The notes under the pieces: generated by a model | Told to the model about the DNA's origin: nothing | What the model saw: the letters and a program-made list of their open reading frames with translations, nothing else | Databases searched by the model: none | Made by a program: the position numbers and the translations under genes | Source of the DNA: a virus | Lineage: Duplodnaviria; Heunggongvirae; Uroviricota; Caudoviricetes | Strand: one strand, 5' to 3' | Virus record (IMG/VR): IMGVR_UViG_2585427752_000010 | Length of the DNA: 19,561 nt | Shown: piece by piece, positions 2,640-19,372 of the stretch | How the letters are laid out: each line of letters opens with the position of its first letter | Numbering within the stretch: the stretch's first letter is position 1

Positions 2640-3070
2640 TGGAAAAGAAAAACCGCCCATTACAGGCGGCTAATTCAGATATTCGCGTATCTGATGTTAC
2701 GCCCCTGACAAAATCCCTTCAAGCACCAAAGCGCACACCGAAAAAGCATCGTGCCAGAGTCTATATGCTGCGTACTGGTATAGAGGGATGGACAGAAAAT
2801 GACATTCTTCGCTACTGCCGTCTGTCTTCTGGTCGTAACTATGCAACAGAGTTAGAACGCCAGCTTGGAATCACTCTGGAGCGTATCGACGAAAAGAATC
2901 CTGATGGTATCGGAACACACCTTCGCTACCGTTTCTCCTGCCGTGGTGATGTTCTGAAAGTGATCACTCATATTAACCATCTTGCGAACATAAATGATCA
3001 CAACGGACTTTCTCAGCAGGAAATTGCCGACATTCTGAAACTCTACCCGGACGCGTTTAACGCCGCCTAA
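2639..3070 (+). CDS. hypothetical protein
   Basis: 143-aa ORF translationally coupled to alpA; basic N-terminus; no recognisable motif. Confidence 0.7.
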   Translation: MEKKNRPLQAANSDIRVSDVTPLTKSLQAPKRTPKKHRARVYMLRTGIEGWTENDILRYCRLSSGRNYATELERQLGITLERIDEKNPDGIGTHLRYRFSCRGDVLKVITHINHLANINDHNGLSQQEIADILKLYPDAFNAA

Positions 3071-3082
3071 CGGAGACTGAAA

Positions 3083-3916: not shown

Positions 3917-4091
3917 GCCAACAGGAACACCACAACCACAAAAACGCTACAAAGATGCCCACGGAGCACTCGTTACTGTCGAAAGCGTGTCTCACAACCG
4001 AGTGACGTTTTATCGCGACGGGTATCAATCGCCATGCGTACAACCGCTGGCGCGTTTCATGAAGGAGTTCGCGGAGGTTAACAAATGCTAA
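3909..4091 (+). CDS. small hypothetical protein (60 aa)
   Basis: ATG at 3909 overlaps the stop of the upstream gene; sequence MSKPTGTPQPQKRYKDAHGALVTVESVSHNRVTFYRDGYQSPCVQP... looks protein-like. The ORF track's 3822 start lies inside the upstream gene and was not used. Confidence 0.5.
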   Translation: MSKPTGTPQPQKRYKDAHGALVTVESVSHNRVTFYRDGYQSPCVQPLARFMKEFAEVNKC

Positions 4092-4522
4092 CCGTCCAGA
4101 AGAAGACATTTTCACTGGCTGGTATGTCGCCAAAATCCAGCAATATGACGGCAAAGTCAGGCATTAATACAGCAGATACAAGCAAAGTTTATCATTTGCT
4201 GGTGGTCGGAACGGATGCCTTAACCATATCAGAAATCTCGGGCGATGATATTAGCATTGAGAAGGTCAGCGGCTGCGCCAGAGAATTTCTGGTCGTAGAT
4301 GACCTGTTCTGCTCGCGTAGTGACTCCACAAAAACATTCGTCCACGCGCGTGACGTTAACGAAATGAGCGCGATGTACTGTGCTTCTGGTTCTTCCAATA
4401 GTGAGTTTTCGGAGTCCATAAAAAAGAGCTTGCCGTTATGCGGCAACACGGTTTATGGTTATAAGGCACCTCATAAAACGGGTGCCGGGTTTCGCAGCCC
4501 GGAAATGTACGAGGCGACACAT

Positions 4523-4544
4523 GACGCGCCGAGCGTCTTTTTTT
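4523..4544 (+). terminator. putative intrinsic terminator inside the ambiguous 4085-4746 region
   Basis: GACGC-gccga-GCGTC hairpin followed by TTTTTTT. Confidence 0.35.
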
Positions 4545-4746
4545 GTGCCGTTAGCCAGACTCACACTTTTTTCAGTGATGTGGTTATAATCCGCGTCGCT
4601 TGCAAAATTATGGTGGGCTGGACAGGGCAGCCGAAAGGCTGGCCGGTTTCCTTGTACGCCGGTACTGCGAACTCTGTTCAGTCCACCACCAGCGAGTTTC
4701 GCAGCTCCGGTGGTGGGAAGAATTCCCAGTACAAGGAGGCTGCCAC

Positions 4747-4941
4747 ATGCTGGCTACTACCCCTACCCAAAAACCGCAATTTATCTGGATTATCGCCGCA
4801 GTTCGCCGCGATTGCCCGACAATTACCGCCAAAATTCATCATATTGCTGCCGAGTCTGAACGCGATGCTCGCCGTTCTCTGGTGCGCGATCACGTCTGCT
4901 TTTTTGCTGGTCGTATCCGCATGGAGGTGGCACATGATTAA
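4747..4941 (+). CDS. small hypothetical protein (64 aa)
   Basis: ATG at 4747 preceded by AGGAGG with 7-nt spacing; product MLATTPTQKPQFIWIIAAVRRD... is charged and protein-like; stop overlaps the next start. Confidence 0.5.
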   Translation: MLATTPTQKPQFIWIIAAVRRDCPTITAKIHHIAAESERDARRSLVRDHVCFFAGRIRMEVAHD

Positions 4942-5152
4942 AACCTACGATGTGCATATGGATCCCCTCGAACGCACAAGCCAGATCATCACACTGACAG
5001 AAGTGATTAATGACATTCTGGTGAGCAACTCTCCCTCACGAGACGAAAAACTGAAGGCGTTACTCGCGATATTGGATCTCGCCGTTCGTGACGTTCATTT
5101 CCTGCTGGAAGGTGGACAAATGCCATGCAAAACGGGGGCAACCAATGAATAA
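4934..5152 (+). CDS. small hypothetical protein (72 aa)
   Basis: ATG at 4934 preceded by GGAGG; product MIKTYDVHMDPLERTSQIITLTEV... is protein-like; it is the in-frame 3' portion of the long 4085..5152 ORF. Confidence 0.55.
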   Translation: MIKTYDVHMDPLERTSQIITLTEVINDILVSNSPSRDEKLKALLAILDLAVRDVHFLLEGGQMPCKTGATNE

Positions 5153-5339
5153 CTCAATTAATGCCCCTCGCCTTACGTCCGCACTTCAATTAATCGAGCA
5201 AGCAGCGGCTGTCCTGGTTGCTGTCAGTCTTTCGGCTGAAGAAATGGACGCTGCTGATGTCGTGGATGCGATTAAAGCGTGCTCATCTTTGGTTAACGAT
5301 GCCCGTGCAGAGCTGGTAATTCTTGGTGGTGAAAAATGA
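5145..5339 (+). CDS. small hypothetical protein (64 aa)
   Basis: ATG at 5145 in frame within the 5088 ORF; overlaps the upstream stop; downstream stop overlaps the next start (ATGA). Confidence 0.5.
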   Translation: MNNSINAPRLTSALQLIEQAAAVLVAVSLSAEEMDAADVVDAIKACSSLVNDARAELVILGGEK

Positions 5340-5599
5340 ATATCAACTTAATTTATCGTCATCCGTGTGAGCTGGAAATTGAATCATTGCTGGGGCGCGA
5401 AGAGCCATATCCAGACACATTCACTCCCGCAGATTGCGCGACTGAACGGCTTACCAGAGCGCGCACAGGTCTGGTTCATGTGATGAATGAGATTGTTCCC
5501 TCGGTGGGAGGGGAACAGGCGACAGTAATCAATAGCTGGCTACAAAAAGTTACCTCCCTGATAGATATCGGTTTAATCGATGTGGAGAGTGCGAAATGA
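5336..5599 (+). CDS. small hypothetical protein (87 aa)
   Basis: ORF with ATGA start/stop overlap on both sides, indicating translational coupling in an operon. Confidence 0.65.
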   Translation: MNINLIYRHPCELEIESLLGREEPYPDTFTPADCATERLTRARTGLVHVMNEIVPSVGGEQATVINSWLQKVTSLIDIGLIDVESAK

Positions 5600-5817
5600 C
5601 CAACATCCAGCTCATTGAAGCGCAATGTCGCATCGAACAGGTTCAGACTGTTTTAGGGTTCTGGCTTGAAGGGGCCAGCCCCAGCAACAGAGACAAGTTA
5701 ATGATTGGCGCGGTTATGTCACTGCTCAATGGCGTACCAGAAGCTATTCAGGAAGCGGACGAATTGTTGGGCAAATATGAGTTACAGAATCATTCAGGCG
5801 AGGCGAAACATGAATAA
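5596..5817 (+). CDS. small hypothetical protein (73 aa)
   Basis: ORF coupled to its neighbours by overlapping stop/start codons. Confidence 0.65.
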   Translation: MTNIQLIEAQCRIEQVQTVLGFWLEGASPSNRDKLMIGAVMSLLNGVPEAIQEADELLGKYELQNHSGEAKHE

Positions 5818-6412
5818 TTTCTTAACTTTCCATGCAGAAGCAACGCCTGACGGCGTAAACATCATGTACCGCAGCAACGATGGCATGACAGAACGCGTTG
5901 AGGCCATCTCATATATTGATGCCGTAAATCGTCTGGATGCCGGGGATTATGACGATAAACCAGATGAAGGTATGTCAATACATCTCGCTATTGCCGATGG
6001 CGGCAACCAGGGATATTTCGATTACACATCACAGCATAACGTCATTATGTGGAGATGGCTGATCGCAACAGTATTCATGCTGGAAATGAGAGAGGAAAAC
6101 GGCACTGTCAGCATCATTGATGATACTGGCAATCCTTCCGAAGTGGCTGTTTATTCCAACGGCATCGTCGCCATGCCGCTGTATCCAGTAGCAGAGCGCC
6201 TCGCTATGGCAAACAACATTGAGGGCGCGATGATAGAACGTTTTGGCATCGAGTCTGGCACAGAACGCGCCATCATTTTCTACAGAGCCATGATGGATGT
6301 GGAACAAGGAGCACTGACTCCATTTGGGCGTGAAACGCTTGCTGAACTTCACAACAGCTTTATAGCTGAACTGAATGAAAACGGCATGCCAGCGGAACCA
6401 GTGACGCACTGA
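5810..6412 (+). CDS. hypothetical protein (200 aa)
   Basis: ATG at 5810 overlaps the upstream stop; acidic product MNNFLTFHAEATPDGVNIMY...; the ORF track's earlier 5705 start would overlap the upstream gene extensively. Confidence 0.7.
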   Translation: MNNFLTFHAEATPDGVNIMYRSNDGMTERVEAISYIDAVNRLDAGDYDDKPDEGMSIHLAIADGGNQGYFDYTSQHNVIMWRWLIATVFMLEMREENGTVSIIDDTGNPSEVAVYSNGIVAMPLYPVAERLAMANNIEGAMIERFGIESGTERAIIFYRAMMDVEQGALTPFGRETLAELHNSFIAELNENGMPAEPVTH

Positions 6413-6422
6413 GGATGGAGCC

Positions 6423-6764
6423 ATGATTACTAAAAATTTCCGACTGAATGCGCTGGCAAATAAGTATGCGTCGGCACTGTATAACCACATTACCTCCACC
6501 AGCGGCGGGGACTATTTCATGGTTGATGCGGACGGCGAGGCCGTCCGTGTGGAAATCGTCAATGGAGTAAAAGGCGTTCGCAGCCTGATCGATAGCTACA
6601 CACTGGCAGCCATGAAAGTGTTCTACCCGCAGTGGGAAACCGTGGGGATCGAGCTTCTTGAACGTTGCGTCACTAAGGACGGATTGACTGACGTCGGGCG
6701 TGAGATATGGCAAAGCATGGTTAATGACATGGGCGCAACTGTAGCGGGAGGTTCTCATGCGTGA
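6423..6764 (+). CDS. hypothetical protein (113 aa)
   Basis: ATG at 6423 with GAGGA RBS; stop overlaps the next start. Confidence 0.7.
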   Translation: MITKNFRLNALANKYASALYNHITSTSGGDYFMVDADGEAVRVEIVNGVKGVRSLIDSYTLAAMKVFYPQWETVGIELLERCVTKDGLTDVGREIWQSMVNDMGATVAGGSHA

Positions 6765-7128
6765 AAATGCAGAAATGGCGCTTAGCTCCGCAATCGGAGA
6801 GCAGGTGGCAAAGATTGCTGGTGCTGTGTGGATTCATAACCTTCATTCTACTGGTGAAGAGAAAATGGCAATTCAGACGCCAGAGGGACGCACCATTACT
6901 ACATCTCTGAAGCCGTCAGATGTTTGTGATCTGATTTGCGCATTCATGTACCCAGCAATGAGGACTGTCCACGGCGATAAGTGGAAACTTGCGACAACCG
7001 CTGAATTTGATATGTGGCTAAACAATGATGGCATGCTGACTGATTACGGAATAACCAAGTGGCAGATGCTGGTTAGCCATATCGCAAACGCTATAGACCA
7101 CGTGGGGTACGGTGATGCGAAACATTGA
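6757..7128 (+). CDS. hypothetical protein (123 aa)
   Basis: ATG at 6757 with GGAGG RBS; 3' end overlaps the primase start. Confidence 0.7.
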   Translation: MRENAEMALSSAIGEQVAKIAGAVWIHNLHSTGEEKMAIQTPEGRTITTSLKPSDVCDLICAFMYPAMRTVHGDKWKLATTAEFDMWLNNDGMLTDYGITKWQMLVSHIANAIDHVGYGDAKH

Positions 7129-9466
7129 TCTTATCCGTCAGGTTATCAGTGCGTCTGAAAACAACTGGCCTCATGTGCTGGGCTGCCTGAACATAAATGT
7201 CCCTGACTCTCCGCGCCGTCATGCTCCCTGCCCTGCATGTGGGGGCAAAGATCGATTCCGGTTCGATGACAACGGGCGCGGTAGCTTCATCTGTAATCAG
7301 TGCGGCGCTGGTGATGGGCTGGATTTAATTAAACGCGTAAATAACTGCGACACAACAGAGGCGGCGCTTCTTGCCGCTGATGTTCTGGGTATTGATTACC
7401 GGACAACGGAAACACCAGAAGCCACCAGCCAGAAACGGGAACAACTGGAAACCGAGCGCCAGCGACGCGAACAGGAGCGCCTGAAAAGGGCAGAGAAGGA
7501 CGAACAACAAAGACGGGATACGTTTTCCCGTCAGTTTGATGACATGCGCAGAAAGGCTGTAAACGGCAAATCTGATTATCTGGTTGCGAAAGGGGTAGGT
7601 GATTTTACATTCCCCGTGTTGCCCGATGGATCTCTGTTGCTGGCGCTGGTGGATAAATCCGGCGCAGTCACAGCAGCACAGACTATTACCTCACATGGTG
7701 AAAAAAGACTCCTGACAGGTTCGGCAAAGCGGGGGGCATATCACGCCATAAACGCACAGAAACGACCTCACAGCATCATAATTGCTGAGGGGGTGGCTAC
7801 CGCCCTGTCGTGCCATTTAATTCGCCCTGACGCAATGACAGTGGCAGCAATCGACGCTGGCAACCTGTTGCCAGTAGCGGAAGTCATGCGCAGAACATAT
7901 CCGCAGGCACAAATAATCATTGCTGCAGATAACGATCACCAGCAAGGAGACTCAGAAAGTGGAGGGATCAACACGGGGAAAGATGCCGCAGAGAGGGCCG
8001 CTATTTCCGTAGCTGGCAGGGTGTCTCTGCCACCGACTGACTATAAAGCCGACTGGAACGACTATCACCAACAACACGGGCTGGCGGCAGCCACAGCAGC
8101 ATTTAAAGATTCGATGTACCAGCCACGGGGGAAAGGGGCGCAGGTGAAAAATCACAAACAGTCAGTCGGGGCGCTGAATGAGATCAGTTCTGGCGAGGTG
8201 TTAAGCGATGATGAAATTGCTGTCCTCGAAGAAATCAACCGGACGTTTACGCATGTCACCATCGGCGGGAAACACAAGGTGGGGTCGCTAAAGCCTTCTC
8301 AAACCGGCGGTGTATCGCACGTTTTCGAGGATTTATCACAATTTCAGCATTATTTTCATCATAAACCGAGAGTCGCCAGAAAGCTGGCGGGATCGGCGTG
8401 GCTGTCATGGAGTGGGAAGAACTACAAGCCAGGAGGCGTAGGATTTTATCCAGTACCAGACAAATGCCCTGACGATGTTTTTAATCTGTATGAGGGGCTG
8501 GCACTGGAACCAATTGAAGGAGATTGCACGGTATACCTTAATCACCTGTTGCAGGTTGTCTGTGCCGGTAATGAAGAGGCATACCAATATCTTATCCAGT
8601 GGATGGCGCACATTATCCAAAAGCCTGATGAAAAACCGTCCGTGGCAATCGTGATGAAATCTGTCCCGGGCACAGGGAAAGGCACAACGGTTAAACCGCT
8701 GCTGCAAATACTGGGGCAGTACGCCGCCCACATTAACGGGGCGGGACATATTTCAGGGCGCTTCAATTCAATACTTGCTAACAAGCTACTGGTATTTGCT
8801 GACGAAGTGACGATCCACAAGCCGTCTGAAGCTGACAGACTTAAAGCGATTATTAGCGAACCGACGTTTAACCTTGAGCGCAAGGGAATTGATGCTGAAC
8901 CAATGCCGAATTTTGCCCGGTTGATATTTGCCAGTAACAGCACACAGGTATTACAGGCAGGGATAAGAGAGCGTCGCTATCTCGTGCTTGAGCCATCTCC
9001 TGAAAAAGCACAGAGCCGGGAGTATTTTGATCGGCTGTACAGTTGGCTTAATGATGGCGGTGCCGCAAAGTTGCTTTGGCATCTTAAAGGGGTGGATCTC
9101 TCAGGTTTTGACCCTCAACGAGCGCCACAGACCGATGCCTTACGTGAAGAAATCTTGCTGGGGCTGTCTGGCGTTGAATTGTTTCTTTATGGCGAGCTAA
9201 TCAATGAACCTCCGTTTAATGGCGAAGTCCGTTTGTTTGCAAAGGATATGGTTAGTCGGTTTGTAGCGTGGTCGCTTGAGCGTGGGGAAAAGCTTAAAGA
9301 ACCAGCTGCCAGATCACTACTGGGTAAATCACTTGCACAAATGGGGCTGGTGAAGCATGGAAGACCAGACCGAGGGAATGGCGTGTTCTACGAACTACCA
9401 GAGGTCGGAGTTCTACAGGCTGCGTTTGCCCGTCTGATCGGTATGGGGGGTTATGATGTTTTTTAA
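7112..9466 (+). CDS. P4-alpha-like bifunctional primase-helicase
   Basis: 784 aa; N-terminal zinc ribbon CPACGG...CNQCG; TOPRIM-like motifs IIIAEGVATA and IIAADNDH; C-terminal P-loop NTPase region with Walker A-like PGTGKGTT and Walker B-like LLVFADEV. Start may be GTG 7112 or ATG 7115. Confidence 0.9.
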   Translation: MMRNIDLIRQVISASENNWPHVLGCLNINVPDSPRRHAPCPACGGKDRFRFDDNGRGSFICNQCGAGDGLDLIKRVNNCDTTEAALLAADVLGIDYRTTETPEATSQKREQLETERQRREQERLKRAEKDEQQRRDTFSRQFDDMRRKAVNGKSDYLVAKGVGDFTFPVLPDGSLLLALVDKSGAVTAAQTITSHGEKRLLTGSAKRGAYHAINAQKRPHSIIIAEGVATALSCHLIRPDAMTVAAIDAGNLLPVAEVMRRTYPQAQIIIAADNDHQQGDSESGGINTGKDAAERAAISVAGRVSLPPTDYKADWNDYHQQHGLAAATAAFKDSMYQPRGKGAQVKNHKQSVGALNEISSGEVLSDDEIAVLEEINRTFTHVTIGGKHKVGSLKPSQTGGVSHVFEDLSQFQHYFHHKPRVARKLAGSAWLSWSGKNYKPGGVGFYPVPDKCPDDVFNLYEGLALEPIEGDCTVYLNHLLQVVCAGNEEAYQYLIQWMAHIIQKPDEKPSVAIVMKSVPGTGKGTTVKPLLQILGQYAAHINGAGHISGRFNSILANKLLVFADEVTIHKPSEADRLKAIISEPTFNLERKGIDAEPMPNFARLIFASNSTQVLQAGIRERRYLVLEPSPEKAQSREYFDRLYSWLNDGGAAKLLWHLKGVDLSGFDPQRAPQTDALREEILLGLSGVELFLYGELINEPPFNGEVRLFAKDMVSRFVAWSLERGEKLKEPAARSLLGKSLAQMGLVKHGRPDRGNGVFYELPEVGVLQAAFARLIGMGGYDVF

Positions 9467-10709: not shown

Positions 10710-11074
10710 CAAAAACAGCGATTTTCTTTATAAGGTATGTTTTGCTCATCTGGCAGACGGAGGTATTCGCTGCGGTTTGGCACATAGCCCAGAACAGCAA
10801 AGAGTTTTACGAGACTTTTGTAAAATCCAGTGTACAAGGGCGTGACGTTTTTGAAGGAGAGACCTACGAAATTTTCGTAGTTCAAAAAATAGCCTCTGAG
10901 ATGTTGTTATGCCTGTTCAGCAAACCATCCGCATAGCTGATCGCGAATCAAATTACCAATGGAGCCAGAAGCAAGGGCAGAACTGGAAAGCGCCTGCCGT
11001 GAAGAGTAATGCGACATCGTAAATATAGTTTTTAGAGTCCATAAAAAAACTGTCAAAACCTGACATACAGAACG

Positions 11075-11108
11075 ATGCCACCAGCTACTGAGCGGTGGCA
11101 TTTTTTTG
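11075..11108 (+). terminator. rho-independent terminator
   Basis: ATGCCACC / GGTGGCAT perfect 8-bp stem with 11-nt loop, followed by TTTTTTT. Confidence 0.65.
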
Positions 11109-11169
11109 TGCTATTTGTTTCATATTTTGCAATTACGATGATGAATATTGCGATTTGTGAAACTATAAT

Positions 11170-11189
11170 AACTGTTGTTTTATACAGTT
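11170..11189 (+). promoter_or_regulatory. LexA-box-like site (CTGT-N8-ACAG) between a TATAAT element and the operon's first RBS
   Basis: AACTGTTGTTTTATACAGTT: CTGT at 11172-11175, 8-nt AT-rich spacer, ACAG at 11184-11187; a consensus -10 TATAAT lies at 11164-11169 and the RBS AAGGGGG at 11192-11198. Confidence 0.4.
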
Positions 11190-11202
11190 CTAAGGGGGCG
11201 TT

Positions 11203-11364
11203 ATGGCTATTTCAGTAAAGCCGGTATTGATAAGTGAGAAGCAAATGGAAGCGATAAAGAAAATTCAGGAAGAGCAGCGTAAAAAATCAGGAATTGGAGT
11301 AGCGCCAACTCTGCATGAAATTGCTCGAGGGTTAATAGATAAGGCGCTGGCAGGCTGTATGTGA
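11203..11364 (+). CDS. small DNA-binding-like protein (possible ribbon-helix-helix), 53 aa
   Basis: Not in the ORF track (below its size cutoff). ATG at 11203 with strong RBS TAAGGGGGCG; product MAISVKPVLISEKQMEAIKKIQEEQRKKSGIGVAPTLHEIARGLIDKALAGCM has a strand-helix-helix-like pattern. Confidence 0.45.
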   Translation: MAISVKPVLISEKQMEAIKKIQEEQRKKSGIGVAPTLHEIARGLIDKALAGCM

Positions 11365-11380
11365 AAATGGATGGCATCGC

Positions 11381-11842
11381 ATGGAACTAAAATTTATTGA
11401 TAACCCTGTGCGATTACAGGCCTTTCTTAACGATCCTGGCAATACCGAAAATATTGTTGAGCCGGGGCACACGTACTACATCAAGCCTGATGCGGTATAT
11501 CTCGGCATCTACGAAGGATTGGTGCTGGCTGGCGTTCATGAAGTGCGTAACTTCTGGCATAGCATTGTTGAATGCCATGCGGTGTACGACCCCGGATTCC
11601 GTGGTGAATATGCACTGCAAGGGCATCGATTATTCTGCAAATGGCTTCTCGAAAACTCACCATTCCTTAACAGCATCACTATGGTTCCTGACACCACGAA
11701 ATACGGACGGGCAATTATCCGTTTGCTTGGCGCTACCCGTGTTGGTCACCTTGATGATGCTTATATCAGATGTGGTAAACCCGTCGGCGTAACGCTTTAT
11801 CAGTTAACTCGGCAACAATATAAGGAATTCAGCGAATGTTAA
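11381..11842 (+). CDS. hypothetical protein (153 aa), second gene of the operon
   Basis: ORF starting 17 nt after the small gene; stop overlaps the next start (ATGTTAA). Confidence 0.75.
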   Translation: MELKFIDNPVRLQAFLNDPGNTENIVEPGHTYYIKPDAVYLGIYEGLVLAGVHEVRNFWHSIVECHAVYDPGFRGEYALQGHRLFCKWLLENSPFLNSITMVPDTTKYGRAIIRLLGATRVGHLDDAYIRCGKPVGVTLYQLTRQQYKEFSEC

Positions 11843-12513
11843 TTACCCATATAGCTCATAAACATCTCAATCGTGCCGTATACGAAAAAGGCGGTGATGG
11901 TGGTGCCTCTAAAGCTCAGGCGAAGGCCCAGCAGCAGGCAATTGATTTGCAGCGCGAGCAGTGGAATACGGTGATGAATAATCTCAAGCCGTATGCAGAA
12001 GTCGGATTGCCTGCTTTACAACAACTACAAGGACTGATGACTCTGGAAGGGCAGAATAAAGCCGCGAATGATTTCTTTGGTTCTGGTTTATATAAAACAC
12101 AGGCAGATCAGGCCCGTTATCAGAACCTTGTCTCAGCAGAAGCTACCGGGGGGCTTGGCTCAACAGCTACCAGTAACCAGTTATCTTCCATTGCGCCCAT
12201 GCTTTATAACAATTGGCTTAGTGGGCAAATGCAAAATTATGGAAACCTGCTAAATGTCGGGATGAATGCGGCATCAGGACAGGCAACGGCAGGGCAAAAC
12301 TACGCCAATAATACCGGACAACTCTTGCAGGGGCTTGGCGCTATTCGTGCAGGTCAGGCGCAGCAGCCATCCAGTCTTGCGCGTGGTATTGGTGGGGCAG
12401 CATCAGGCGCTTTAGCGGGTGCGCAACTTGGTTCCGTTGTTCCTGGAATAGGTACTGCGGCAGGCGCTATTGGTGGTGGGCTTATTGGTCTTGTTGGGGG
12501 GCTTGGATTCTAA
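11836..12513 (+). CDS. Gly/Ala/Gln-rich protein with C-terminal glycine-zipper hydrophobic segment (225 aa)
   Basis: AAGGAA RBS; low-complexity Q/A/G/N-rich body; C-terminus GIGGAASGALAGAQLGSVVPGIGTAAGAIGGGLIGLVGGLGF has repeated GxxxG spacing typical of membrane-inserting glycine zippers. Confidence 0.75.
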   Translation: MLITHIAHKHLNRAVYEKGGDGGASKAQAKAQQQAIDLQREQWNTVMNNLKPYAEVGLPALQQLQGLMTLEGQNKAANDFFGSGLYKTQADQARYQNLVSAEATGGLGSTATSNQLSSIAPMLYNNWLSGQMQNYGNLLNVGMNAASGQATAGQNYANNTGQLLQGLGAIRAGQAQQPSSLARGIGGAASGALAGAQLGSVVPGIGTAAGAIGGGLIGLVGGLGF

Positions 12514-13826
12514 TGGCGACATGGCAACTTGGCGGGCTGCCTAGCATGGCACCGCAAAATGATAATGCTCCTCGTTCTTCCGTTCCTCAGCCTGTGCAGT
12601 ATCAGCAGCAGCCAAACGTAGGTTTAATGGCGCTACAGGGGCTAAGAGGCGTTGCTGAGATTAATCAGCAGGCGCAAATTTCCCAGCAGCTAAAAGAATA
12701 TCAGGCACGGTTGGGTAGTGCGGTAGCTAATAATGATCGTGTTGGCGTGCAGAAGTTAATGGCCCAGTATCCCCAGTTTATGGCTGATTCTCAAAAACAG
12801 ATGGGATTCATTGATGCTGAGCAAAATCGGCAGACCGCTGACGCTGCCATGAATCTGCGTCTTGCGTCACAAACTGGAGATCCACTGACCATGCAGAAGG
12901 CCATTCAGCAGGCAAATCCAGTATTACAGCGATTTGGTCTTCCTGCTGAAGAGGTTTATCAGTCTTGGCAGAATGACCCACAGGAATTCAACAGAATCAC
13001 TGACCTCATCCACCTCCATGCTGATCCAAATAGTTACTTTAGTGTTCAAGAGAAGCAGCAAGGGCAGAGTATTGCACAGCAGAACGCAGATACATCTGCA
13101 TATAATGCTCAGGTTAATGCGGAACAGGGTAATCGGCGTCTCGATATGGAGCAGTTCAAAGCCCTATCCGATAACCAGCTACGCACGAGAGAAATGGTTC
13201 TGAAAGCACGACTTGGACGTGCTCAAAATGACATCGAGAGAGACAAGCTCAATGCTGAACTGAGCAAGGTACAGCAGGCGAAAGTGGAGAAGATGAACGA
13301 TAAAATTAATACTGTTGTAGGTAACATCGACTCCTTGAACTCTGCGCTTGAAGTGGGTCATGAACTGGCGGGAATTGTAGGGAAACATCCTTCGGCCGTT
13401 ACCCGTTCGCAGAACTATAACCCCCTGACGCTGGGGTTTGGATTCCTTCCTGATGTAGCAGAAGACACACGAAGCCTACGCGCCAAAGCTGATGAATACA
13501 ACCTAAAGGTTATTCTGCCTAGCCTCAAAGGGACTTTTGGCTCTAACCCAACCGAAGGGGAAAGGGCTGCCCTTATGCAATCTCAAAATGGCATTAAGTC
13601 AGCAACCAGCAATGAGGCATTTTTGCGAGAGTTGAATAAAGCGCAGGACGTAATTATTCGAATGCAGAAACGACAGATTGCCGGGCTCGGTATTCCTGTA
13701 ACCAAATCTAAGGACGAAGAAACTGATACCAAAATGCTGTTGCAGGATCCTTCTCTGGTTAAGGATTATGTGACCGCACATGGCTATCTGCCGGAAAGTT
13801 ACTATCAGGCAAAACTTAAGGGATAG
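12513..13826 (+). CDS. Gln-rich, probably coiled-coil protein (437 aa)
   Basis: ATG overlaps the upstream stop (TAATG); Q-rich N-terminal half and charged, heptad-like central region. Confidence 0.8.
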   Translation: MATWQLGGLPSMAPQNDNAPRSSVPQPVQYQQQPNVGLMALQGLRGVAEINQQAQISQQLKEYQARLGSAVANNDRVGVQKLMAQYPQFMADSQKQMGFIDAEQNRQTADAAMNLRLASQTGDPLTMQKAIQQANPVLQRFGLPAEEVYQSWQNDPQEFNRITDLIHLHADPNSYFSVQEKQQGQSIAQQNADTSAYNAQVNAEQGNRRLDMEQFKALSDNQLRTREMVLKARLGRAQNDIERDKLNAELSKVQQAKVEKMNDKINTVVGNIDSLNSALEVGHELAGIVGKHPSAVTRSQNYNPLTLGFGFLPDVAEDTRSLRAKADEYNLKVILPSLKGTFGSNPTEGERAALMQSQNGIKSATSNEAFLRELNKAQDVIIRMQKRQIAGLGIPVTKSKDEETDTKMLLQDPSLVKDYVTAHGYLPESYYQAKLKG

Positions 13827-13828
13827 CA

Positions 13829-16549
13829 ATGATGGCACAACTGACAGAAAAACAGAAAGCCTATTCCCGTCATCTCGATGAAAAATATGGTTTCCCATCA
13901 GGGACGATGGAAACATTAGTTGGCAATGAATCTAGTGGTAACGGAAGTGCCGAGTCACCGAAAGGAGCTAGAGGATTTGCTCAACTGATGCCCTCAGTAA
14001 TGAGTGATGCTGGTTATCGTGGAACAGATCCGCGCTCACTGCCATTTGAAAAGCAAATGGATATCGCAGCAAACCATCTCAATAAAGGAATGAAGCGATT
14101 TGGTGATATAGGTATGGCATTGGCTGGGTATAATTCTGGCTATGCTCGTATTAATGCCGTAAGAAACGGTAAATCTACACTGCCAGATGAAACGGCTAAT
14201 TACGTAAGTAAATTTGCAGATGCCGGAATAATCCCTGATGACAGTGAAATCTTGCAGTTTGCACAAACCAGTCAACATCGCAATCTTCAGCAGCCTGACT
14301 ACTCAGAGCTTGATAAAGAAATCTCTCAGGTGGGAGATATTTCTGCATGGGAAGCAAAACGTCAGCAATTTAAGAACATAGAAGCAGGACTACCAACAGC
14401 CAGTTCATGGGAGCAGAAAAGAGCTCAGTTTCTCGCCGATGAAAATGCCGGGGAACCGCAGCAGCAAGTAGCCAAGTCTAACCTTAATCCTGAGATGGAA
14501 TATCTTTCGCCAGGACTGAAAGCTGCGCCAGAGCAGATGGCCAGAGGGATTGCTAATATACCGTTTGATGTAATGGACGCAGGCGTGGGGGTAGTCAATG
14601 CGGCGCAATCAGCCGGAGCATGGGCAGCTCAGAAGCTTGGTGTGGGTGATGGCACATACACGCCCATATCACCTGTCTTTCGCCCAGTAGACCAACCTAC
14701 AGATCCATACGCGCAGGCTGGTGAGCAGCTAGCACCTTACCTTATTACAGGATTAGGTGCAGGAAAGGCAGCTACCGCAGCTTCTTCAGTTGCCAACGCT
14801 CCACGTGCTGAACGTGCGGCCACAAAGGTGGCTAGTATGTTGGCAGAAAACCTGCCAGGTACATTGGTGAACGCCCAAAAGAACGGGCAGATCAGCCCAG
14901 AAGACCTAGCAAAAGAGACAGGTATTGGCCTAGCAGGATCGCTAGGAGCACGCGCTTTAATAAAGAGCGGACAGACAGCCAGTGACGTAATGCGAGATGT
15001 ATTGCGGAGTAATACAAATCAATCAGGCCATGTGTTAGGGGCAGCAAATACTCTGGAAACCGCCAATGATGTATCGAAAGCAGCGCGTTCTGCCGTAGGC
15101 CGAGAGCATATCGCATCGCAGGCATCAAACGTCAGAGATGATGTCGCTAAGGCGGCGAAAATTACTGGTATTAATATCAACACCCTGACGCCTGGAATGC
15201 GCTCAGGTAGTCGTGGAATTGCCCAAGCAGAAGGTGTTCTGGCATCAACTCCTGGGAATGTTCAGGATGCTCACCTTACGGCCTTCAATGAAATATCCTC
15301 AAAGTTGAATAAGCAGTTGTCTGATTTCGGTGCTGAGTCTGGAAGCGCATCAGAAAAAAGCGCAGCAATTAAAGAGCGCATCATCGCGAGCCTCAGTGAT
15401 ATGAAAACAGCAGAGAATATGGCATGGGCAGAACTGCGAAGCACGATGCCACGCGAAAGGATGAAAATGAGTAATGGGATGGCTGTCGTCCAAGCAGAAA
15501 AAGCAGCCAATGTTCCACTCAGCCCGGAGATGAAACAGTTTCAGGCTGCCAACAACCAAGGTGGCGGCATAACCTTCGACGGGATGAAGGCATGGCGTGC
15601 TAAGTTTGCTGATGCTGAACAAGCAAACACCCGGGCAGGTAAGGCCAATGCCGCCCGGATTGCCGGAGAAATGCGCAGAGCTATCACTGATGACATGCGC
15701 ATCATGGCTGAAAAAGGAAACTTCCTCACAGAATGGCAGAAAGCTAACGATCTCTCTAAAAGTTACATTATCGCCAAACAAAATGCCGAATCTGTTTTTG
15801 GTCGAGATCTCGCATCAGACGCTATGGTAAGAAAAGGTGCCGATACGCTTAAGGCATCCGCAAACACTGGAACGGGAGCTTTTCACCGTCTTATCTCCGC
15901 GCTGCCGGAAGCAGAACGCCAACCAGCAATAGCATCTATTCTTCAGCATGCTGTGGCGCAGGGAGAGAAGGGAGGAATCGGTGAAGAATCTGGTATCCAG
16001 TATTTTGCCAAGCTCATGACCCAGCAGAATGTAAACGCCATCAGTCGTCATGCGCCAGATCTCGGTAGAATGATGAAAGAGTTCGGTGTACTCGCTAAAG
16101 CCAGCACCAGACCGCAGCGATACGTAGAGCGCACGGGAAGAACAACTGAGGCTCTCAAAACGCTCGATTCAGGCCTTCCAAAGATCGTCGGCGTGATTAT
16201 GAACGGAGTTCAACAGTCAGGTGCGATCGCTGGAGGCTTTGGCGGTGGTGTAATTGGTTCGATTAGTGGTTTGGTTGCTGGTGGCGCGCTGAGAAATACT
16301 GTGGCTAAGATTGGGGCGACAAGAAGTGGTAGATATGCGATAGAGAAAGCCGTTCAGGAAGCTACAAAAGCAGTGCGCGCAGGGGCATCACCAGCAGCGA
16401 TCGCCGCAGCAGAGAAACGATTTTCGGCCAATAAAATTGCCATGAAAGCAATTCGTGATGCCGTTGGGGCTGAAGAATTCGTGAAACTGACAAGGGCCGG
16501 GATTGTAGCTACCCTCAGTGGCATGAAAGATGTTAGCGAATGGGAATAG
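13829..16549 (+). CDS. large protein with N-terminal lytic transglycosylase (SLT) domain and C-terminal Gly-rich hydrophobic segment (906 aa)
   Basis: N-terminal NESSGNGSAESPKGARGFAQLMP fits the SLT catalytic ES...GA.G..QLMP pattern and ALAGYNSGYARI fits the AYN.G motif; long Ala-rich body; near the C-terminus GGFGGGVIGSISGLVAGGAL. Confidence 0.85.
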   Translation: MMAQLTEKQKAYSRHLDEKYGFPSGTMETLVGNESSGNGSAESPKGARGFAQLMPSVMSDAGYRGTDPRSLPFEKQMDIAANHLNKGMKRFGDIGMALAGYNSGYARINAVRNGKSTLPDETANYVSKFADAGIIPDDSEILQFAQTSQHRNLQQPDYSELDKEISQVGDISAWEAKRQQFKNIEAGLPTASSWEQKRAQFLADENAGEPQQQVAKSNLNPEMEYLSPGLKAAPEQMARGIANIPFDVMDAGVGVVNAAQSAGAWAAQKLGVGDGTYTPISPVFRPVDQPTDPYAQAGEQLAPYLITGLGAGKAATAASSVANAPRAERAATKVASMLAENLPGTLVNAQKNGQISPEDLAKETGIGLAGSLGARALIKSGQTASDVMRDVLRSNTNQSGHVLGAANTLETANDVSKAARSAVGREHIASQASNVRDDVAKAAKITGININTLTPGMRSGSRGIAQAEGVLASTPGNVQDAHLTAFNEISSKLNKQLSDFGAESGSASEKSAAIKERIIASLSDMKTAENMAWAELRSTMPRERMKMSNGMAVVQAEKAANVPLSPEMKQFQAANNQGGGITFDGMKAWRAKFADAEQANTRAGKANAARIAGEMRRAITDDMRIMAEKGNFLTEWQKANDLSKSYIIAKQNAESVFGRDLASDAMVRKGADTLKASANTGTGAFHRLISALPEAERQPAIASILQHAVAQGEKGGIGEESGIQYFAKLMTQQNVNAISRHAPDLGRMMKEFGVLAKASTRPQRYVERTGRTTEALKTLDSGLPKIVGVIMNGVQQSGAIAGGFGGGVIGSISGLVAGGALRNTVAKIGATRSGRYAIEKAVQEATKAVRAGASPAAIAAAEKRFSANKIAMKAIRDAVGAEEFVKLTRAGIVATLSGMKDVSEWE

Positions 16550-16699
16550 ACGCTCTAACTAACAAAACCATAATAGCCAAGGACGGCATACTGATATTGA
16601 GCCAACTATCAAAATTCCATATCACATTACGGGCCTGTGGCTTACATTCGCTTACAGTGATGATAATTTATAACCACGCAATTCTTAGGTGAGATTATC

Positions 16700-17398
16700 A
16701 TGATTAAAAATCTTCTTTTAATATTATCCCTGTCATTATTGGCTGGATGCGTACAAAAACCGTTAGTAACGGTCAATGCTTTATCTTCCGGGCAATCTGT
16801 CGGTAAGAAGTTCTTGATCATCCCCGCAAGCCAAGAACTTTGGAACACCAAACAGATTGAATACACTCAAATAGCTACGGTAGTAGCCGCCAGTTTATCA
16901 AGCCAAGGATATACACAAGTTAAAGATGAAAAATTGGCTGACCAGGTAATTCTCTTGAACTTTTTGAGAAGCGGGGCCATTTCAAATACTCGTAATGTAA
17001 CCATCCCAATATACGGGCAAACTGGTGTGAGCTCAGCAACAACGTACGGAAACTCGAACACCACGTTCAATAGTTATGGTGGTGGCTACGGTACAGCTAA
17101 TATCACTGGAACGGCAACAACAGTTTATACGCCTACTTATGGAATTACTGGCGCGTATAACACAACTGTGACGGACACGTTCTACGGCGCAGGGGTGATA
17201 CTCCAGTCGTTTGATGCCAAGGCTTATCTCAATAATAGGCAGATTAATATGTTATGGAAAGTTGGTAGCTCAGTCGTCTCGCAACAGTCTGATGGAATTG
17301 CTGATTACAAGGGGTTGGCGAGAATAGCCGCTAGCTATGCCGGGAAAAATACAGAAGGTGATATAACTTTTAATGTTGACCCTAAAGCACCAAATTAA
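16700..17398 (+). CDS. lipoprotein, Thr/Gly/Tyr-rich (232 aa)
   Basis: Signal peptide MIKNLLLILSLSLLAGC with lipobox LAGC; AGGTGA RBS; mature part rich in T/G/Y/N repeats; lower GC than the upstream operon. Confidence 0.8.
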   Translation: MIKNLLLILSLSLLAGCVQKPLVTVNALSSGQSVGKKFLIIPASQELWNTKQIEYTQIATVVAASLSSQGYTQVKDEKLADQVILLNFLRSGAISNTRNVTIPIYGQTGVSSATTYGNSNTTFNSYGGGYGTANITGTATTVYTPTYGITGAYNTTVTDTFYGAGVILQSFDAKAYLNNRQINMLWKVGSSVVSQQSDGIADYKGLARIAASYAGKNTEGDITFNVDPKAPN

Positions 17399-17405
17399 CT
17401 AATAA

Positions 17406-17427
17406 GCCCGGTACGCCGGGCATTTAT
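17406..17427 (+). terminator. weak terminator-like hairpin after the lipoprotein gene
   Basis: GCCCGG-tacg-CCGGGC perfect 6-bp stem followed by a T-poor tail (ATTTAT). Confidence 0.35.
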
Positions 17428-17562
17428 GCCCCTATTATTCATGAATCGCTTTTTCTAGAAGGTATGCGACAAACGTTAAGTGACATTGCCTACACATTCG
17501 GGGCGGGATTTCAAATCCGCTCCCAGTTGATGGGGTCGTTACAGTACGCGCATATCCGCTTT

Positions 17563-17633
17563 ATGTGAAACAGGAAGATTTTTCTGATATCACTGCCACA
17601 GCAAAACACCAATTTCGTGACCAGTACGCGCAC
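17563..17633. repeat. copy A of a ~70-bp repeat family (copies B at 17838-17867 and C at 19473-19543)
   Basis: A and C align over ~70 bp (ATGTGA.A..GGA.G.TTTTTC.GA.ATCACT ... CAATTTC..GA.CA.TACGCGC) with small indels; B is a shortened copy (CTGATAT-TTTGCGACAAGTACGCGCGCG); a fourth core CAGTACGCGC lies at 17542-17551. Confidence 0.6.
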
Positions 17634-17895
17634 GATGGAGGGGAGTACCATAAAACTGTTCTCTACATAAGTCAGAGTGGTGGTGATGTGTTGATTATCG
17701 GCGTATATGCGCACAGGACGCGCTATGACGATGTTTTATGCGGGTACACCAATCACATGTATCTGGTGTGATAAATCGCGTTACATGACCTCTCATGTTG
17801 TGCTGGTGGTTATCACGACGTTCTGAATCTGGCCTTTGCCTGATATTTTGCGACAAGTACGCGCGCGTAGCATCGACAGCATACACATTGGATAT

Positions 17896-18911: not shown

Positions 18912-19199
18912 ATGATAAGGGACAGGAAAGCTGAAGAGCTGGAGTCAAAAGGGCTATACCGGAGAGCTGCCGCACGATGGGCAGAAGTCATGATGCTGGC
19001 AGATGGCGATAAAGAACGTGAACATGCAGCAAACAGACGTTCTGAATGTATCCGTAAGGCGGCACGCCCACCAGCAACTACAGACAGATTCGGAGATTTA
19101 AGACAGGCAGTTAAGCGGACTCATTCGGCTCTTGGTATGGATGAGGAAGCGAGAGGGTACTTCAGGCGTTATCGCGATAAAGATTGCCAGAGACAGTAA
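18912..19199 (+). CDS. PerC-family transcriptional regulator-like protein (95 aa)
   Basis: GAGAGG RBS; N-terminus MIRDRKAEELESKGLYRRAAARWAEVM resembles PerC/Pch regulators of E. coli prophage-like elements (recalled, not searched). Confidence 0.6.
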   Translation: MIRDRKAEELESKGLYRRAAARWAEVMMLADGDKEREHAANRRSECIRKAARPPATTDRFGDLRQAVKRTHSALGMDEEARGYFRRYRDKDCQRQ

Positions 19200-19272
19200 T
19201 GCTCTCTCTGTTTTGGCAAATTACCCCTCACTTTGAAGGGATCGGAGCTATAAAAATGGTTTTAGGTACATT

Positions 19273-19372
19273 CCTCAAATTGAGGATTGTGGGAAAACCA
19301 ATGGGTTAGGCTTTTCCCCCAATGGGGGTTTTCGAAAGAATCAATGGGTTAGTCCATCGTGCAAATTTGCAC
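19273..19372. repeat. cluster of palindromes and direct repeats downstream of the PerC-like gene
   Basis: CCTCAA-A-TTGAGG (19273-19285); CCAATGGGTTAGG-like direct repeats starting at 19298, 19319 and 19341 (21-22 bp phase); perfect 14-bp palindrome GTGCAAATTTGCAC (19359-19372). Confidence 0.55.

Follow-up and report, generated by a model that had tools for sequence, protein, structure and literature searches.

Among the known ways in which phage satellites exploit their helpers are capsid remodeling, redirected packaging and capsids of the satellite's own; known satellites include P4 (Sid/Psu), cfPICIs (own capsids), EcCICFT073-type PICIs (helper cos site, Rpp) and SaPIs (own TerS/pac). Ejection proteins (E-proteins) only 22-26% identical are also known to assemble and work in P22. 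The closest described satellite is EcCIMP1, a PICI of Escherichia coli MP1; it requires the P22-like phage Kapi1 for excision and transfer, has AlpA as its master activator and carries a PerC homologue that represses the LEE (PMC11773190). The paper describing it (Pick, Stadel and Raivio, ISME J 2025) lists genes 017-019 as "similar to DNA transfer proteins/DUF2824" and as possible packaging genes; it names no ejection-protein set, SLT domain or pac site, with 0 occurrences of "ejection" or "transglycosylase" (PMC11773190). For P22 itself, foreign E-proteins work, gp16 and gp20 can be swapped only together, mismatched pairs yield non-infectious particles, escape from SieA maps to gp16/gp20, and transducing particles are also blocked by SieA (PMC10883804). 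In T7, the largest ejection protein, gp16 (1318 aa), builds a core stack, a structure not made by P22-type E-proteins (PMC8954989).

Here we analyze a window of 19,561 nucleotides, IMG/VR virus record IMGVR_UViG_2585427752_000010. We consider it probable that an SLT-headed gp16 gene ends a gp14-gp7-gp20-gp16 operon of an EcCIMP1-family satellite, and that the satellite is pac-packaged with its own E-proteins in helper capsids.

An EcCIMP1-type island with a P22-type ejection operon

The island lies between yicC and yicG and carries, on the + strand, a tyrosine integrase (1-1260; family match), an AlpA-family regulator (2436-2639; family match), a P4/P1-type RNA immunity region (4466-4693) made up of isrK (4466-4543) and the C4 antisense RNA (4606-4693), a primase-helicase with Zn-ribbon, Toprim and DUF5906 domains (7112-9466; Pfam, PHROG) and a PerC-family regulator (18912-19199; Pfam), together with AntA. 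As in PICIs, integrase, AlpA and a primase/replication module share one orientation, and an int-alpA RNA was also found. Pfam and PHROG searches of all ORFs in the window found no capsid, portal, terminase, tail or lysis genes, and no psu, sid, delta, terS or rpp. The island does encode internal virion (ejection) proteins and so lacks structural genes, as PICIs do, only in a looser sense. With P4-like satellites it shares the C4/isrK RNA immunity, an "Ash" region and an alpha-type primase.

The backbone and ejection cassette are nearly identical to EcCIMP1 (96% over 2629-8136 and 98% over 10801-17876 at the nucleotide level), and the pac-like fragment and PerC gene are common to both. The 906-aa gene is present in EcCIMP1 too, at 99.6% nucleotide identity. 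In contrast, the integrase and its site differ (yicC-yicG versus tRNA-Thr/proA), as do the primase C terminus (DUF5906 versus DUF927) and the right-end accessory genes. At the island ends in G749, only a 12-bp direct repeat offers itself as an att candidate. A repeat search turned up no noteworthy long internal or inverted repeats. Judged by gene content and identity, the island is an EcCIMP1-like PICI satellite of P22-like podophages with P4-like RNA immunity. The first-pass annotation, made from the letters alone, had called the 906-aa protein unexpected as cargo of an integrase/primase island; this was a fair flag, but the island is not a generic one.

Three phage-type genes precede that of the 906-aa protein on the same strand. 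They encode homologues of gp14 (11381-11842; 153 aa; DUF2824, "head morphogenesis"; Pfam, PHROG), which is 83% identical to gp14 of the helper Kapi1, of the ejection protein gp7 (11836-12513; 225 aa; Pfam P22_gp7, E=6.6e-73) and of the periplasmic conduit ejection protein gp20 (12513-13826; 437 aa; Pfam Inj_translocase, E=3.6e-22; PHROG 917/2534). The junctions overlap or abut, the gp7 stop overlapping the gp20 start (ATGG/TAATG), and the order is that of P22. From this arrangement, the gp16 gene is the last of a translationally coupled gp14-gp7-gp20-gp16 operon. The gp14, gp7 and gp20 genes and the pac-like fragment, which give the 906-aa protein its meaning, are absent from the first-pass annotation.

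The cassette is headed by a conserved 53-aa ORF (11203-11364, + strand; WP_001018524.1, annotated in relatives), present in all satellites examined, Citrobacter included, with a 53-aa gene at the same place in L008. It has no family match, and NCBIfam and PADLOC were uninformative for the cassette neighbors. Directly downstream of gp16 lies a gene for a 232-aa lipoprotein with a MIKNLLLILSLSLLAGC lipobox (16700-17398, + strand), which accompanies the SLT allele in EcCIMP1, G749 and AR_0069 and has no match in Pfam, PHROG, NCBIfam or PADLOC.

An SLT domain on a gp16-type protein

The reading frame at 13829-16549 is open throughout on the + strand and ATG-started, giving the 906 aa first annotated; as homologues start at the second Met, the actual length may be 905 aa. 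The product is Ala-rich, as noted before (Ala 15.8%, Gly 9.7%). We read it as an SLT-headed gp16-type ejection (E/pilot) protein from the ORF, the Pfam SLT and PHROG 770 matches, and PF26808 and PF01464 annotations precomputed on homologues.

Pfam SLT (PF01464) matches aa 15-117 (13871-14179, + strand) with 48 bits against a cut-off of 21.3 (E=1.1e-12). The motifs from which the first-pass annotation had placed a peptidoglycan-cleaving domain at the N terminus, ES...GARGFAQLMP and AGYNSG, are present as E34-S35...G46-A-R-G-F-A-Q52-L-M-P55 and A99-G-Y-N-S-G104, and include the E-S, G-x-x-Q-[LV]-M and A-Y-N motifs of SLT domains. E34, S35, S43, G46, A47, G49, Q52, M54, P55 and Y101 do not vary among the 20 aligned SLT-bearing homologues, while N102 of the A-Y-N motif is found in 18 of the 20. 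The catalytic Glu34 (codon GAA, 13928-13930), whose loss among homologues had been named as evidence against such a domain, is thus kept in every one.

The domain search and structure prediction proposed with that annotation both find the SLT fold. Modeled alone, the domain reaches a pLDDT of 94.6 and a pTM of 0.89, with a confident fold over aa 1-145 (13829-14263), and Foldseek places this model among goose-lysozyme-like alpha-helical folds, with probability 1.00 to Slt, MltE, MltC, MltD and T7 gp16 (E down to 2e-4; TMq 0.54-0.72). Against PDB sequences, phmmer with the full 906-aa protein gave no match, and the N-terminal 174 aa gave weak matches only, to Slt70 and a tape-measure SLT (E ~0.1). 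Profile, alignment and model together indicate that the N-terminal domain is a genuine SLT/family-1 lytic transglycosylase domain, predicted by analogy to cut peptidoglycan via Glu34.

The remainder is of another kind. PHROG 770, "DNA transfer protein," matches aa 187-862 (14387-16414, + strand) with E=1.8e-120, and PF26808 (Phage_P22_gp16) is a precomputed annotation on a 100%-identical protein cluster. Alignment agrees, and in the full-length AlphaFold model, which is poor beyond aa 1-145 (mean pLDDT 55), the body is mostly helical at low confidence, as expected of a protein that refolds on ejection. By these matches, aa 187-862 is a P22 gp16-type DNA-ejection protein. Of the envelope-breaching DNA-translocation machines proposed for this architecture, a phage internal virion protein is therefore supported by the gp16-family body and the P22 gene order, whereas a tape-measure or a VirB1-like protein does not fit, given a gp16-type body and a window devoid of tail and T4SS genes.

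A conserved Gly-rich hydrophobic segment, GAIAGGFGGGVIGSISGLVAGGALR, spans aa 798-822 (16220-16294, + strand; hydropathy, alignment). The first-pass annotation had it ending the protein as a probable membrane segment; it does exist, but some 85 residues before the C terminus, and its hydrophobic peak (Kyte-Doolittle 19-mer maximum 1.55) is marginal for a transmembrane helix. G798, G802, G805-807, G810 and G814 are nonetheless invariant in 24 of 24 homologues, including ones without SLT, and a candidate membrane-active segment is plausible from hydropathy and conservation, in a low-confidence part of the full-length model.

Among known proteins, the body is homologous to the 719- to 722-aa "DNA transfer proteins" of the P22 gp16 family (CUS-3/HK620 type), with 51-52% identity over about 80% of the query for the 719-aa type. 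Common to both are the place after gp14-gp7-gp20 and the Gly-rich segment followed by a TRSGRYAIEK motif, whereas the satellite protein is satellite-encoded and has about 185 extra N-terminal residues with SLT. With P22 gp16 itself, BLASTP aligns only 76 residues (46% identical). Some complete P22-like phages share the SLT-gp16 architecture and the operon (Serratia prophages L010/L011 and Escherichia phages Dewey and Huey; 45-58% full-length identity), their genes lying in full genomes with portal, coat, gp4, gp10, gp26 and tailspike. SLT-bearing gp16 proteins do, then, exist in the P22-like world, against a recent review. As such fusions are also found in complete phages, the protein itself is ordinary, and what makes it interesting is its place in a satellite; the clade of satellite copies (E. 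coli 99-100%, Citrobacter/Leclercia 82-85%) stands apart from every phage copy found.

T7 gp16 likewise carries an N-terminal transglycosylase (E37, against E34 here) on the largest ejection protein, the rest of which reaches the inner membrane, and gives the best superpositions of the SLT model (9jyy_I/7eyb_I, TMq 0.72; 7k5c_B, 0.67). The Foldseek alignments cover about 149 columns of the SLT-domain model, the PHROG "internal virion protein with endolysin domain" covers aa 8-215 only, and no sequence homology was detected beyond SLT. T7 gp16 is an analogue of the satellite protein, not a member of its family; its SLT activity is known to be important only where the cell wall is highly cross-linked.

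Proposed packaging and ejection, and exchange of the gp20-gp16 pair

A fragment of about 107 bp of the phage small-terminase gene 3 lies on the - strand at 4233-4339, with 92% identity to P22 gene 3 (E=9e-31). When aligned with the P22 pac feature, which we take to be a 22-bp site at nt 268-289 of gene 3 recognized by gp3, the homology begins exactly at the corresponding 22-mer, GAATGTTTTTGTGGAGTCACTA (4339-4318). This putative site matches P22 at 15 of 22 positions and the intact gene 3 of an E. coli MB1159 prophage at 21 of 22. In 16 of 16 satellite copies, the 22-mer agrees at 21-22 of 22 positions with gene 3 as found intact in phage L065 and in the MB1159 prophage, and the adjoining 85 nt are a mosaic of three phage alleles. 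Gene 3 of MB1159/L065-type phages carries GAAGGTTTTTGTGGAGTCACTA; in IMG/VR, the exact window 22-mer (T at position 4) is confined to satellites, the G-variant being shared with real phages. The conservation is marginally significant (Fisher p=0.045-0.07) and could be due to the edge position in the homology tract or to an antisense ORF annotated "ash." Citrobacter satellites lack the gene-3 fragment within the 10 kb examined. Kapi1 has a different small terminase (143 aa), and its transduction of EcCIMP1 is very low, about 4.8e3 particles/ml (PMC11773190). A terminase of the wrong type for the satellite pac copy is a possible explanation, and MB1159/L065-like prophages carrying the identical 22-mer are the candidate cognate helper type.

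Sister satellites share gp14 and gp7 at 98-100% identity, but their gp20 N terminus is only 49% identical and their gp16 is unrelated, and one satellite type carries gp20 and gp16 only. Comparison of these alleles points to gp20-gp16 as a pair swappable between satellites, in agreement with the experiments on paired gp16/gp20 exchange in P22 (PMC10883804).

From these features, we infer packaging via the pac copy and loading of the satellite's own ejection proteins into helper capsids, which suggests that the satellite brings its own DNA-injection parts when riding in a helper capsid. When the helper turns lytic, the satellite would excise and replicate, as shown for EcCIMP1. A P22-type terminase would recognize the concatemers at the gene-3 pac copy and package them by headful, twice about 21 kb approximating one P22 headful, and satellite gp7, gp20 and gp16 would be built into helper procapsids. 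In the next cell, the E-proteins would exit the virion ahead of the DNA: the SLT head, through Glu34, may open a local peptidoglycan hole, as the N-terminal part of T7 gp16 does, gp20 would make the periplasmic tube, and the gp16 body with its Gly-rich segment would engage the inner membrane, allowing satellite DNA entry. Because mismatched gp16/gp20 pairs are non-functional in P22, mixing the E-proteins of satellite and helper in the same capsid could do harm.

The benefit would be a matched, swappable gp20-gp16 pair through which the satellite controls entry specificity. It may also evade SieA-type superinfection exclusion, which targets E-proteins, in recipients already lysogenic; these would be the best hosts for a satellite. 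Against this, the relevant E. coli helpers have shown no SieA homologue; the gene at the sieA position in MB1159 encodes an unrelated lipoprotein that has no SieA similarity and was ruled out as SieA, and only its signal peptide matches that of the satellite lipoprotein, so that kinship of the two was rejected as well. More tentatively, and with slightly less than even confidence, we propose that widespread enterobacterial satellites exploit P22-like podophages by pac piracy plus their own swappable gp20-gp16 "ejectosome," here SLT-headed, and that the satellite thereby decides injection route and target cells, including exclusion-protected ones.

Copying or replacing helper morphogenesis functions and cis sites is a general strategy shared with P4, cfPICIs, EcCICFT073-type PICIs and SaPIs, whereas the part replaced here is the DNA-ejection machinery. 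In the searchable literature, we found no description of such a replacement by any satellite, nor a report of satellite E-proteins entering virions or being needed for transfer. If true, this would add a further, unreported layer to the exploitation of helpers and would directly account for why genes 16 and 20 are so extremely diverse. A test is easy in EcCIMP1, for which a genetic system exists. These satellites are frequent in E. coli, commensal as well as pathogenic, and encode PerC-type virulence regulators.

The E-proteins might instead act as a weapon or shield, poisoning helper virions or disturbing the conduit of superinfecting P22-like phages in the resident cell, as other satellites interfere with helpers through capsid-size or packaging factors. 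Satellite gp20 and gp16 are just 24-26% identical to those of Kapi1, mismatched pairs cost P22 its infectivity (PMC10883804), and EcCIMP1 contributes to the superinfection immunity of Kapi1 lysogens, yet Kapi1 titers from induced lysogens are unchanged by EcCIMP1 (PMC11773190). Moreover, the E-proteins lack signal peptides, with no N-terminal hydrophobic segment in gp20 or gp16, and so would not gain access to the periplasm when made in the resident cell, the terminator-like leader before the cassette suggests silence in the resting state, and the adjacent lipoprotein is a simpler exclusion candidate. We regard this role as unlikely and favor delivery of the E-proteins in helper capsids.

Distribution and purifying selection

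The 906-aa allele is present in 76 of 5,426 complete genomes, in 74 of them at no less than 99% identity. About 4.7% of complete E. coli genomes carry the cassette's conserved 5' half. The cassette also occurs in matching satellite context in Citrobacter and on an IMG/VR contig (L141). Between E. coli and Citrobacter satellites, cassette dN/dS is 0.034-0.075 at dS of at least 1 (gp7, 0.034; gp20, 0.056).

These data bear on the possibility that the cassette has no function and is left over from a P22-like prophage that recombined into, or decayed beside, an integrase/primase island. Its genes derive from phages, the gene-3 fragment is a phage gene cut short, and some copies are damaged, by IS insertions in M15 and M160133 and a deletion in AR_0069. 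However, 72 of the 76 copies are full-length at 99% identity or more, and hundreds of elements with differing integration sites carry the cassette at the identical position 3' of the primase. There is no trace of gp26 or tailspike genes beside the cassette, and the closest phage gp16 is only 46-58% identical. With dN/dS of 0.03-0.08 across genera, the cassette is, by these substitution patterns, under strong purifying selection, functional and not a relic, which makes a remnant very improbable. A role in a non-phage envelope machine (VirB1-like, secretion or conjugation) or in lysing the cell for the island is effectively refuted by domain architecture and neighborhood: T4SS, T3SS and flagella use SLT domains and NCBIfam gives a weak match to a flagellar lytic transglycosylase (23 bits, below the cut-off of 234), but genes for secretion, conjugation or a holin are missing from the window, P22 gp16 family sequence makes up two-thirds of the protein, whose gene lies in synteny with gp14, gp7 and gp20, and a signal peptide is lacking.

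Pairing of the C4 immunity RNA with the cassette leader (11029-11108, + strand) was rejected, the duplex energy (-40.7) being no better than that of shuffles (-42.6 +/- 4.7). The terminator-like hairpin of the leader, GCCACC...GGTGGC followed by a T-run (~11078-11108), comes after a copy of the motif TTTTTAGAGTCCATAAAAA (11029-11047). The first copy of this motif (4406-4424) lies upstream of isrK and C4, two copies being observed in all against 0.04 expected.

The 906-aa protein and its phage relatives

The 906-codon ORF at 13829 to 16549 (plus strand, ATG start) contains the ES...GARGFAQLMP and AGYNSG motifs from which the first-pass annotation proposed an N-terminal peptidoglycan-cleaving domain, a prediction that further analysis upholds. 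Residues 15 to 117 match Pfam SLT (PF01464) with 48 bits against a cut-off of 21.3. In an alignment with 23 homologues, 19 of which have the N-terminal domain (with the query, 20 SLT-bearing sequences and 24 in total), the catalytic Glu34-Ser35, the G46-A-x-G-x-x-Q52-[LV]-M-P55 block, and Tyr101 are invariant in 20/20 SLT-bearing sequences. The annotation had suggested checking both conservation of the catalytic Glu among homologues, which is complete, and the predicted structure, which recovers the SLT fold. Residues 1 to 150, modeled alone with AlphaFold (pLDDT 94.6, pTM 0.89), match Slt, MltE, MltC, and MltD in a Foldseek search of the PDB (probability 1.00, E down to 2e-4). The top TM-scores belong to T7 gp16 in the virion core (9jyy_I and 7eyb_I; TMq 0.72, rmsd 3.4 to 4.0), and T7 gp16 in the ejectosome (7k5c_B) reaches a TMq of 0.67. 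T7 gp16 is a functional analogue, its catalytic residue being E37 rather than E34.

As residues 187 to 862 match PHROG 770 ("DNA transfer protein," E=1.8e-120), a query-identical database cluster (621 member sequences) is annotated PF26808 (Phage_P22_gp16) plus PF01464, and the gene order is that of P22, 14-7-20-16, the ORF encodes an ejection protein (E-protein or pilot protein) of gp16 type with an added SLT head. The gp16 family membership and the operon support the earlier view of an envelope-breaching DNA-translocation factor. The Gly-rich hydrophobic segment described at the C terminus is present at residues 798 to 822 (GAIAGGFGGGVIGSISGLVAGGALR), with glycines invariant in 24/24 aligned sequences, SLT-less ones included. 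It is not terminal, however, lying 85 residues before the protein end, and its hydrophobicity is marginal and model confidence there low; a membrane role for this candidate segment is plausible. The linker between SLT domain and gp16 body holds a short internal repeat, W-E-x-K-R-x-Q-F (SAWEAKRQQF/SSWEQKRAQF), at 14348 to 14371 (residues 174 to 181) and 14408 to 14431 (residues 194 to 201).

Complete P22-like Serratia prophages (45 to 56% identity) have the SLT-gp16 architecture too, with portal, coat, gp4, gp10, needle, and tailspike genes as neighbors, and so do the Escherichia phages Dewey and Huey, whose proteins align with 97% of the query at 46.7% identity. A recent review's statement to the contrary is therefore outdated, and as an SLT-bearing variant of P22 gp16 the 906-aa protein is nothing unusual, if under-appreciated. 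None of the phage copies found by sequence searches exceeds 58% identity, so the satellite lineage is old and separate.

An EcCIMP1-like satellite

The window encodes a tyrosine integrase, AlpA, an AntA antirepressor, a primase-helicase, and PerC, and ORF-wide searches found no capsid, portal, terminase, tail, or lysis genes in it. Rfam matches comprise int-alpA RNA (RF02996, 1269 to 1335), isrK (4466 to 4543), and C4 antisense RNA (4606 to 4693), the latter two well over gathering thresholds; together they form a P4/P1-style RNA immunity region. A Pfam Phage_ASH match at 4454 to 4781 (residues 124 to 232 of a 355-aa ORF, 4085 to 5152) overlies isrK and C4, so that this "Ash protein" ORF may represent the immunity region read as protein, which perhaps also holds for some members of the Pfam family; RefSeq annotates it variably as a long ORF or a pseudogene. 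PerC (18912 to 19199, plus strand) and int-alpA RNA are both typical of enterobacterial PICIs, and the EcCIMP1 PerC homologue is an LEE repressor in Citrobacter rodentium (PMC11773190).

EcCIMP1, a PICI of Escherichia coli MP1, shares 96% identity with the window over 2629 to 8136 and 98% over 10801 to 17876, and holds the same four-gene cassette with a 906-aa "lytic transglycosylase domain-containing protein." The island spans ~21.1 kb between yicC and yicG in E. coli G749. By nucleotide comparison, the island is an EcCIMP1-like element and a member of a published satellite family. EcCIMP1 excises only upon induction of the P22-like phage Kapi1, and its transfer by this phage is very infrequent (Pick, Stadel, and Raivio, ISME J 2025, PMC11773190). 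The text of that paper contains neither "ejection" nor "transglycosylase," and we found no other satellites with ejection proteins in the literature searched.

Between int and alpA, a 321-aa ORF (1356 to 2321, plus strand) belongs to no family and has a weak PADLOC match (PDC-S31, E=0.002); G749, WP2-S18-ESBL-07, and EcCIMP1 have other genes there, and this may be a variable accessory or defense slot. Near the right end, downstream of perC, two imperfect 39-nt direct repeats, 43 nt apart and ending CAATGGGTTAG, occupy 19271 to 19352.

Selection on and exchange of the cassette

The homologues of gp14 (DUF2824, 11381 to 11842), gp7 (P22_gp7, 11836 to 12513), and gp20 (Inj_translocase, 12513 to 13826), identified by Pfam, share the plus strand with SLT-gp16, and all junctions overlap or abut. 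Compared with a Citrobacter satellite of the same layout at the same yicG-ligB site, all four genes have dN/dS of 0.034 to 0.075 with dS of at least 1, and the SLT domain alone has 0.048. The 906-aa allele, always single-copy and chromosomal, is found in 76/5426 complete E. coli genomes, with at least 99% identity in 74 of the 76 and at least 80% of the gene covered in 72. Selection, prevalence, and lineage thus all indicate functional cargo. Relative to Kapi1, the only known helper, identity is 83% for gp14, 58% for gp7, 26% for gp20, and 24% for gp16.

The motif TTTTNGRAGTCCATAAAAA occurs twice in the window (0.04 expected), before isrK/C4 (4406 to 4424) and before the cassette (11029 to 11047). 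After the second copy comes a terminator-like hairpin (~11078 to 11108) whose TTTTTTTGTGC tail is shared with the isrK terminator. Also found upstream of the cassette in Citrobacter satellites and absent from Kapi1, Dewey, and P22, the motif probably marks a satellite promoter or attenuator. Pairing of C4 RNA with the leader was checked and is unsupported. A 53-aa ORF (MAISVKPVLISEKQMEAIKK..., 11203 to 11364, plus strand) comes first in the cassettes of all satellites seen, the gp20-gp16-only type among them; it has no family match and by eye looks like a ribbon-helix-helix protein.

The leader, 53-aa ORF, gp14, and gp7 segment is present at 80% coverage or more in 253 genomes (4.7%), and sister satellites reveal three configurations. 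The first, in the window, EcCIMP1, and G749, comprises gp14, gp7, gp20 (437 aa), SLT-gp16 (906 aa), and a lipoprotein. In the second (strains 789 and M160133), gp14 and gp7 are 98 to 100% identical to these, gp20 (473 aa) shares only 49% identity over its first 188 residues, and gp16 (701 aa, without SLT) has no BLASTP similarity to the 906-aa protein. The third (WP2-S18-ESBL-07) has the leader and small ORF, then only gp20 (488 aa) and gp16 (701 aa). The configurations point to the gp20-gp16 pair as invariant core, with the swap point inside gp20 near residue 190. Among these strains and AR_0069, one copy has an IS66-disrupted gp16 and another a primase-to-gp20 deletion.

This structure mirrors hybrid-phage results, in which E-proteins of Sf6, L, CUS-3, and HK620 (gp16 only 22 to 26% identical) assemble and work in P22 virions (Leavitt et al., mBio 2024, PMC10883804). 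There, gp7 is exchangeable singly, gp16 and gp20 function only as a matched pair, and the determinants of escape from SieA exclusion lie in gp16 and gp20, HK620 E-proteins giving partial escape. Generalized transducing particles are also excluded by SieA, the target being delivery proteins, not DNA (PMC10883804).

A gene 3 fragment and a proposed role in delivery

Between the DUF4222 gene and the immunity RNAs lies a ~107-bp fragment of small-terminase gene 3 (4233 to 4339, minus strand; 92% identity to part of P22 gene 3, E=9e-31). The homology starts exactly at the annotated 22-bp P22 pac site (nt 268 to 289 of gene 3) and ends ~107 nt downstream. The window 22-mer (4318 to 4339), GAATGTTTTTGTGGAGTCACTA, matches P22 pac, GAAGATTTATCTGAAGTCGTTA, at 15/22 positions and the Dewey-type 22-mer, GAAGGTTTTTCTGACGTCACAT, at 16/22. 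The intact gene 3 of a complete phage contig (L065) and of a complete P22-like prophage in E. coli ST131 strain MB1159 contains GAAGGTTTTTGTGGAGTCACTA, which EcCIMP1 has unchanged and which matches the window 22-mer at 21/22 positions. The L065 terminase is close to that of P22 (gp3 90%, gp2 93%), and this gene 3 type is found at 99% identity or more in 17 genomes.

The fragment in one form or another, from satellite or prophage, occurs in 687/5426 E. coli genomes and in 16/16 satellites sampled. Among these 16, 1/22 sites vary in the 22-mer versus 19/85 and 10/66 in the flanks (Fisher p 0.045 versus the gene-3-like body, 0.07 versus both flanks). A mosaic is seen in the adjacent 85 nt, which are nearest the P22 allele (0.94 to 0.96), Dewey (0.95 to 0.96), or L065 (0.91 to 0.94) depending on the copy, and half of the variable sites are third positions in the gp3 frame. 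The pattern suggests that satellites have recombined with helper gene 3 more than once while the 22-mer stayed fixed, with two reservations: at the homology edge the 22-mer is less readily reached by conversion tracts, and it is overlapped by an antisense ORF with the annotation "ash family protein." Kapi1 has a different type of small terminase (143 aa), which could explain the very low transfer of EcCIMP1. The P22 headful is ~43.5 kb, which two ~21-kb satellite copies would approximate.

Helper-induced excision, replication, and transfer have been shown for EcCIMP1 (PMC11773190). A P22-type terminase would then package the satellite via its pac copy, and the cassette would be expressed from the leader with its satellite-specific motif and hairpin. 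Satellite gp7, gp20, and gp16 would be built into helper procapsids, as the hybrid-phage experiments make plausible (PMC10883804). By P22 homology and T7 analogy, the E-proteins would be ejected after adsorption, the SLT head cutting peptidoglycan locally, gp20 forming a tube, and gp16 acting at the inner membrane. The satellite might thereby gain control of entry, escape from E-protein-targeted exclusion, or aid with a highly cross-linked wall. What is new is the interpretation: a satellite family with its own selectable, swappable ejection-protein module and a copy of the helper pac region.

[quoted passage not shown] Selection and conservation contradict a dead prophage remnant, as domain architecture and gene neighborhood do a secretion-system or lysis enzyme.

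A candidate for the unexplained immunity is the 232-aa lipoprotein (lipobox LLAGC; 16700 to 17398, plus strand) encoded directly after gp16, which matches no known family and stays with the SLT allele not only in EcCIMP1 and G749 but also in the AR_0069 copy with its deletion. The MB1159 prophage encodes a 161-aa lipoprotein (L140, 30873 to 31358, minus strand) just after gene 16, at the position and orientation of P22 sieA; it is related to neither SieA nor the satellite lipoprotein and may be an exclusion protein of another kind.
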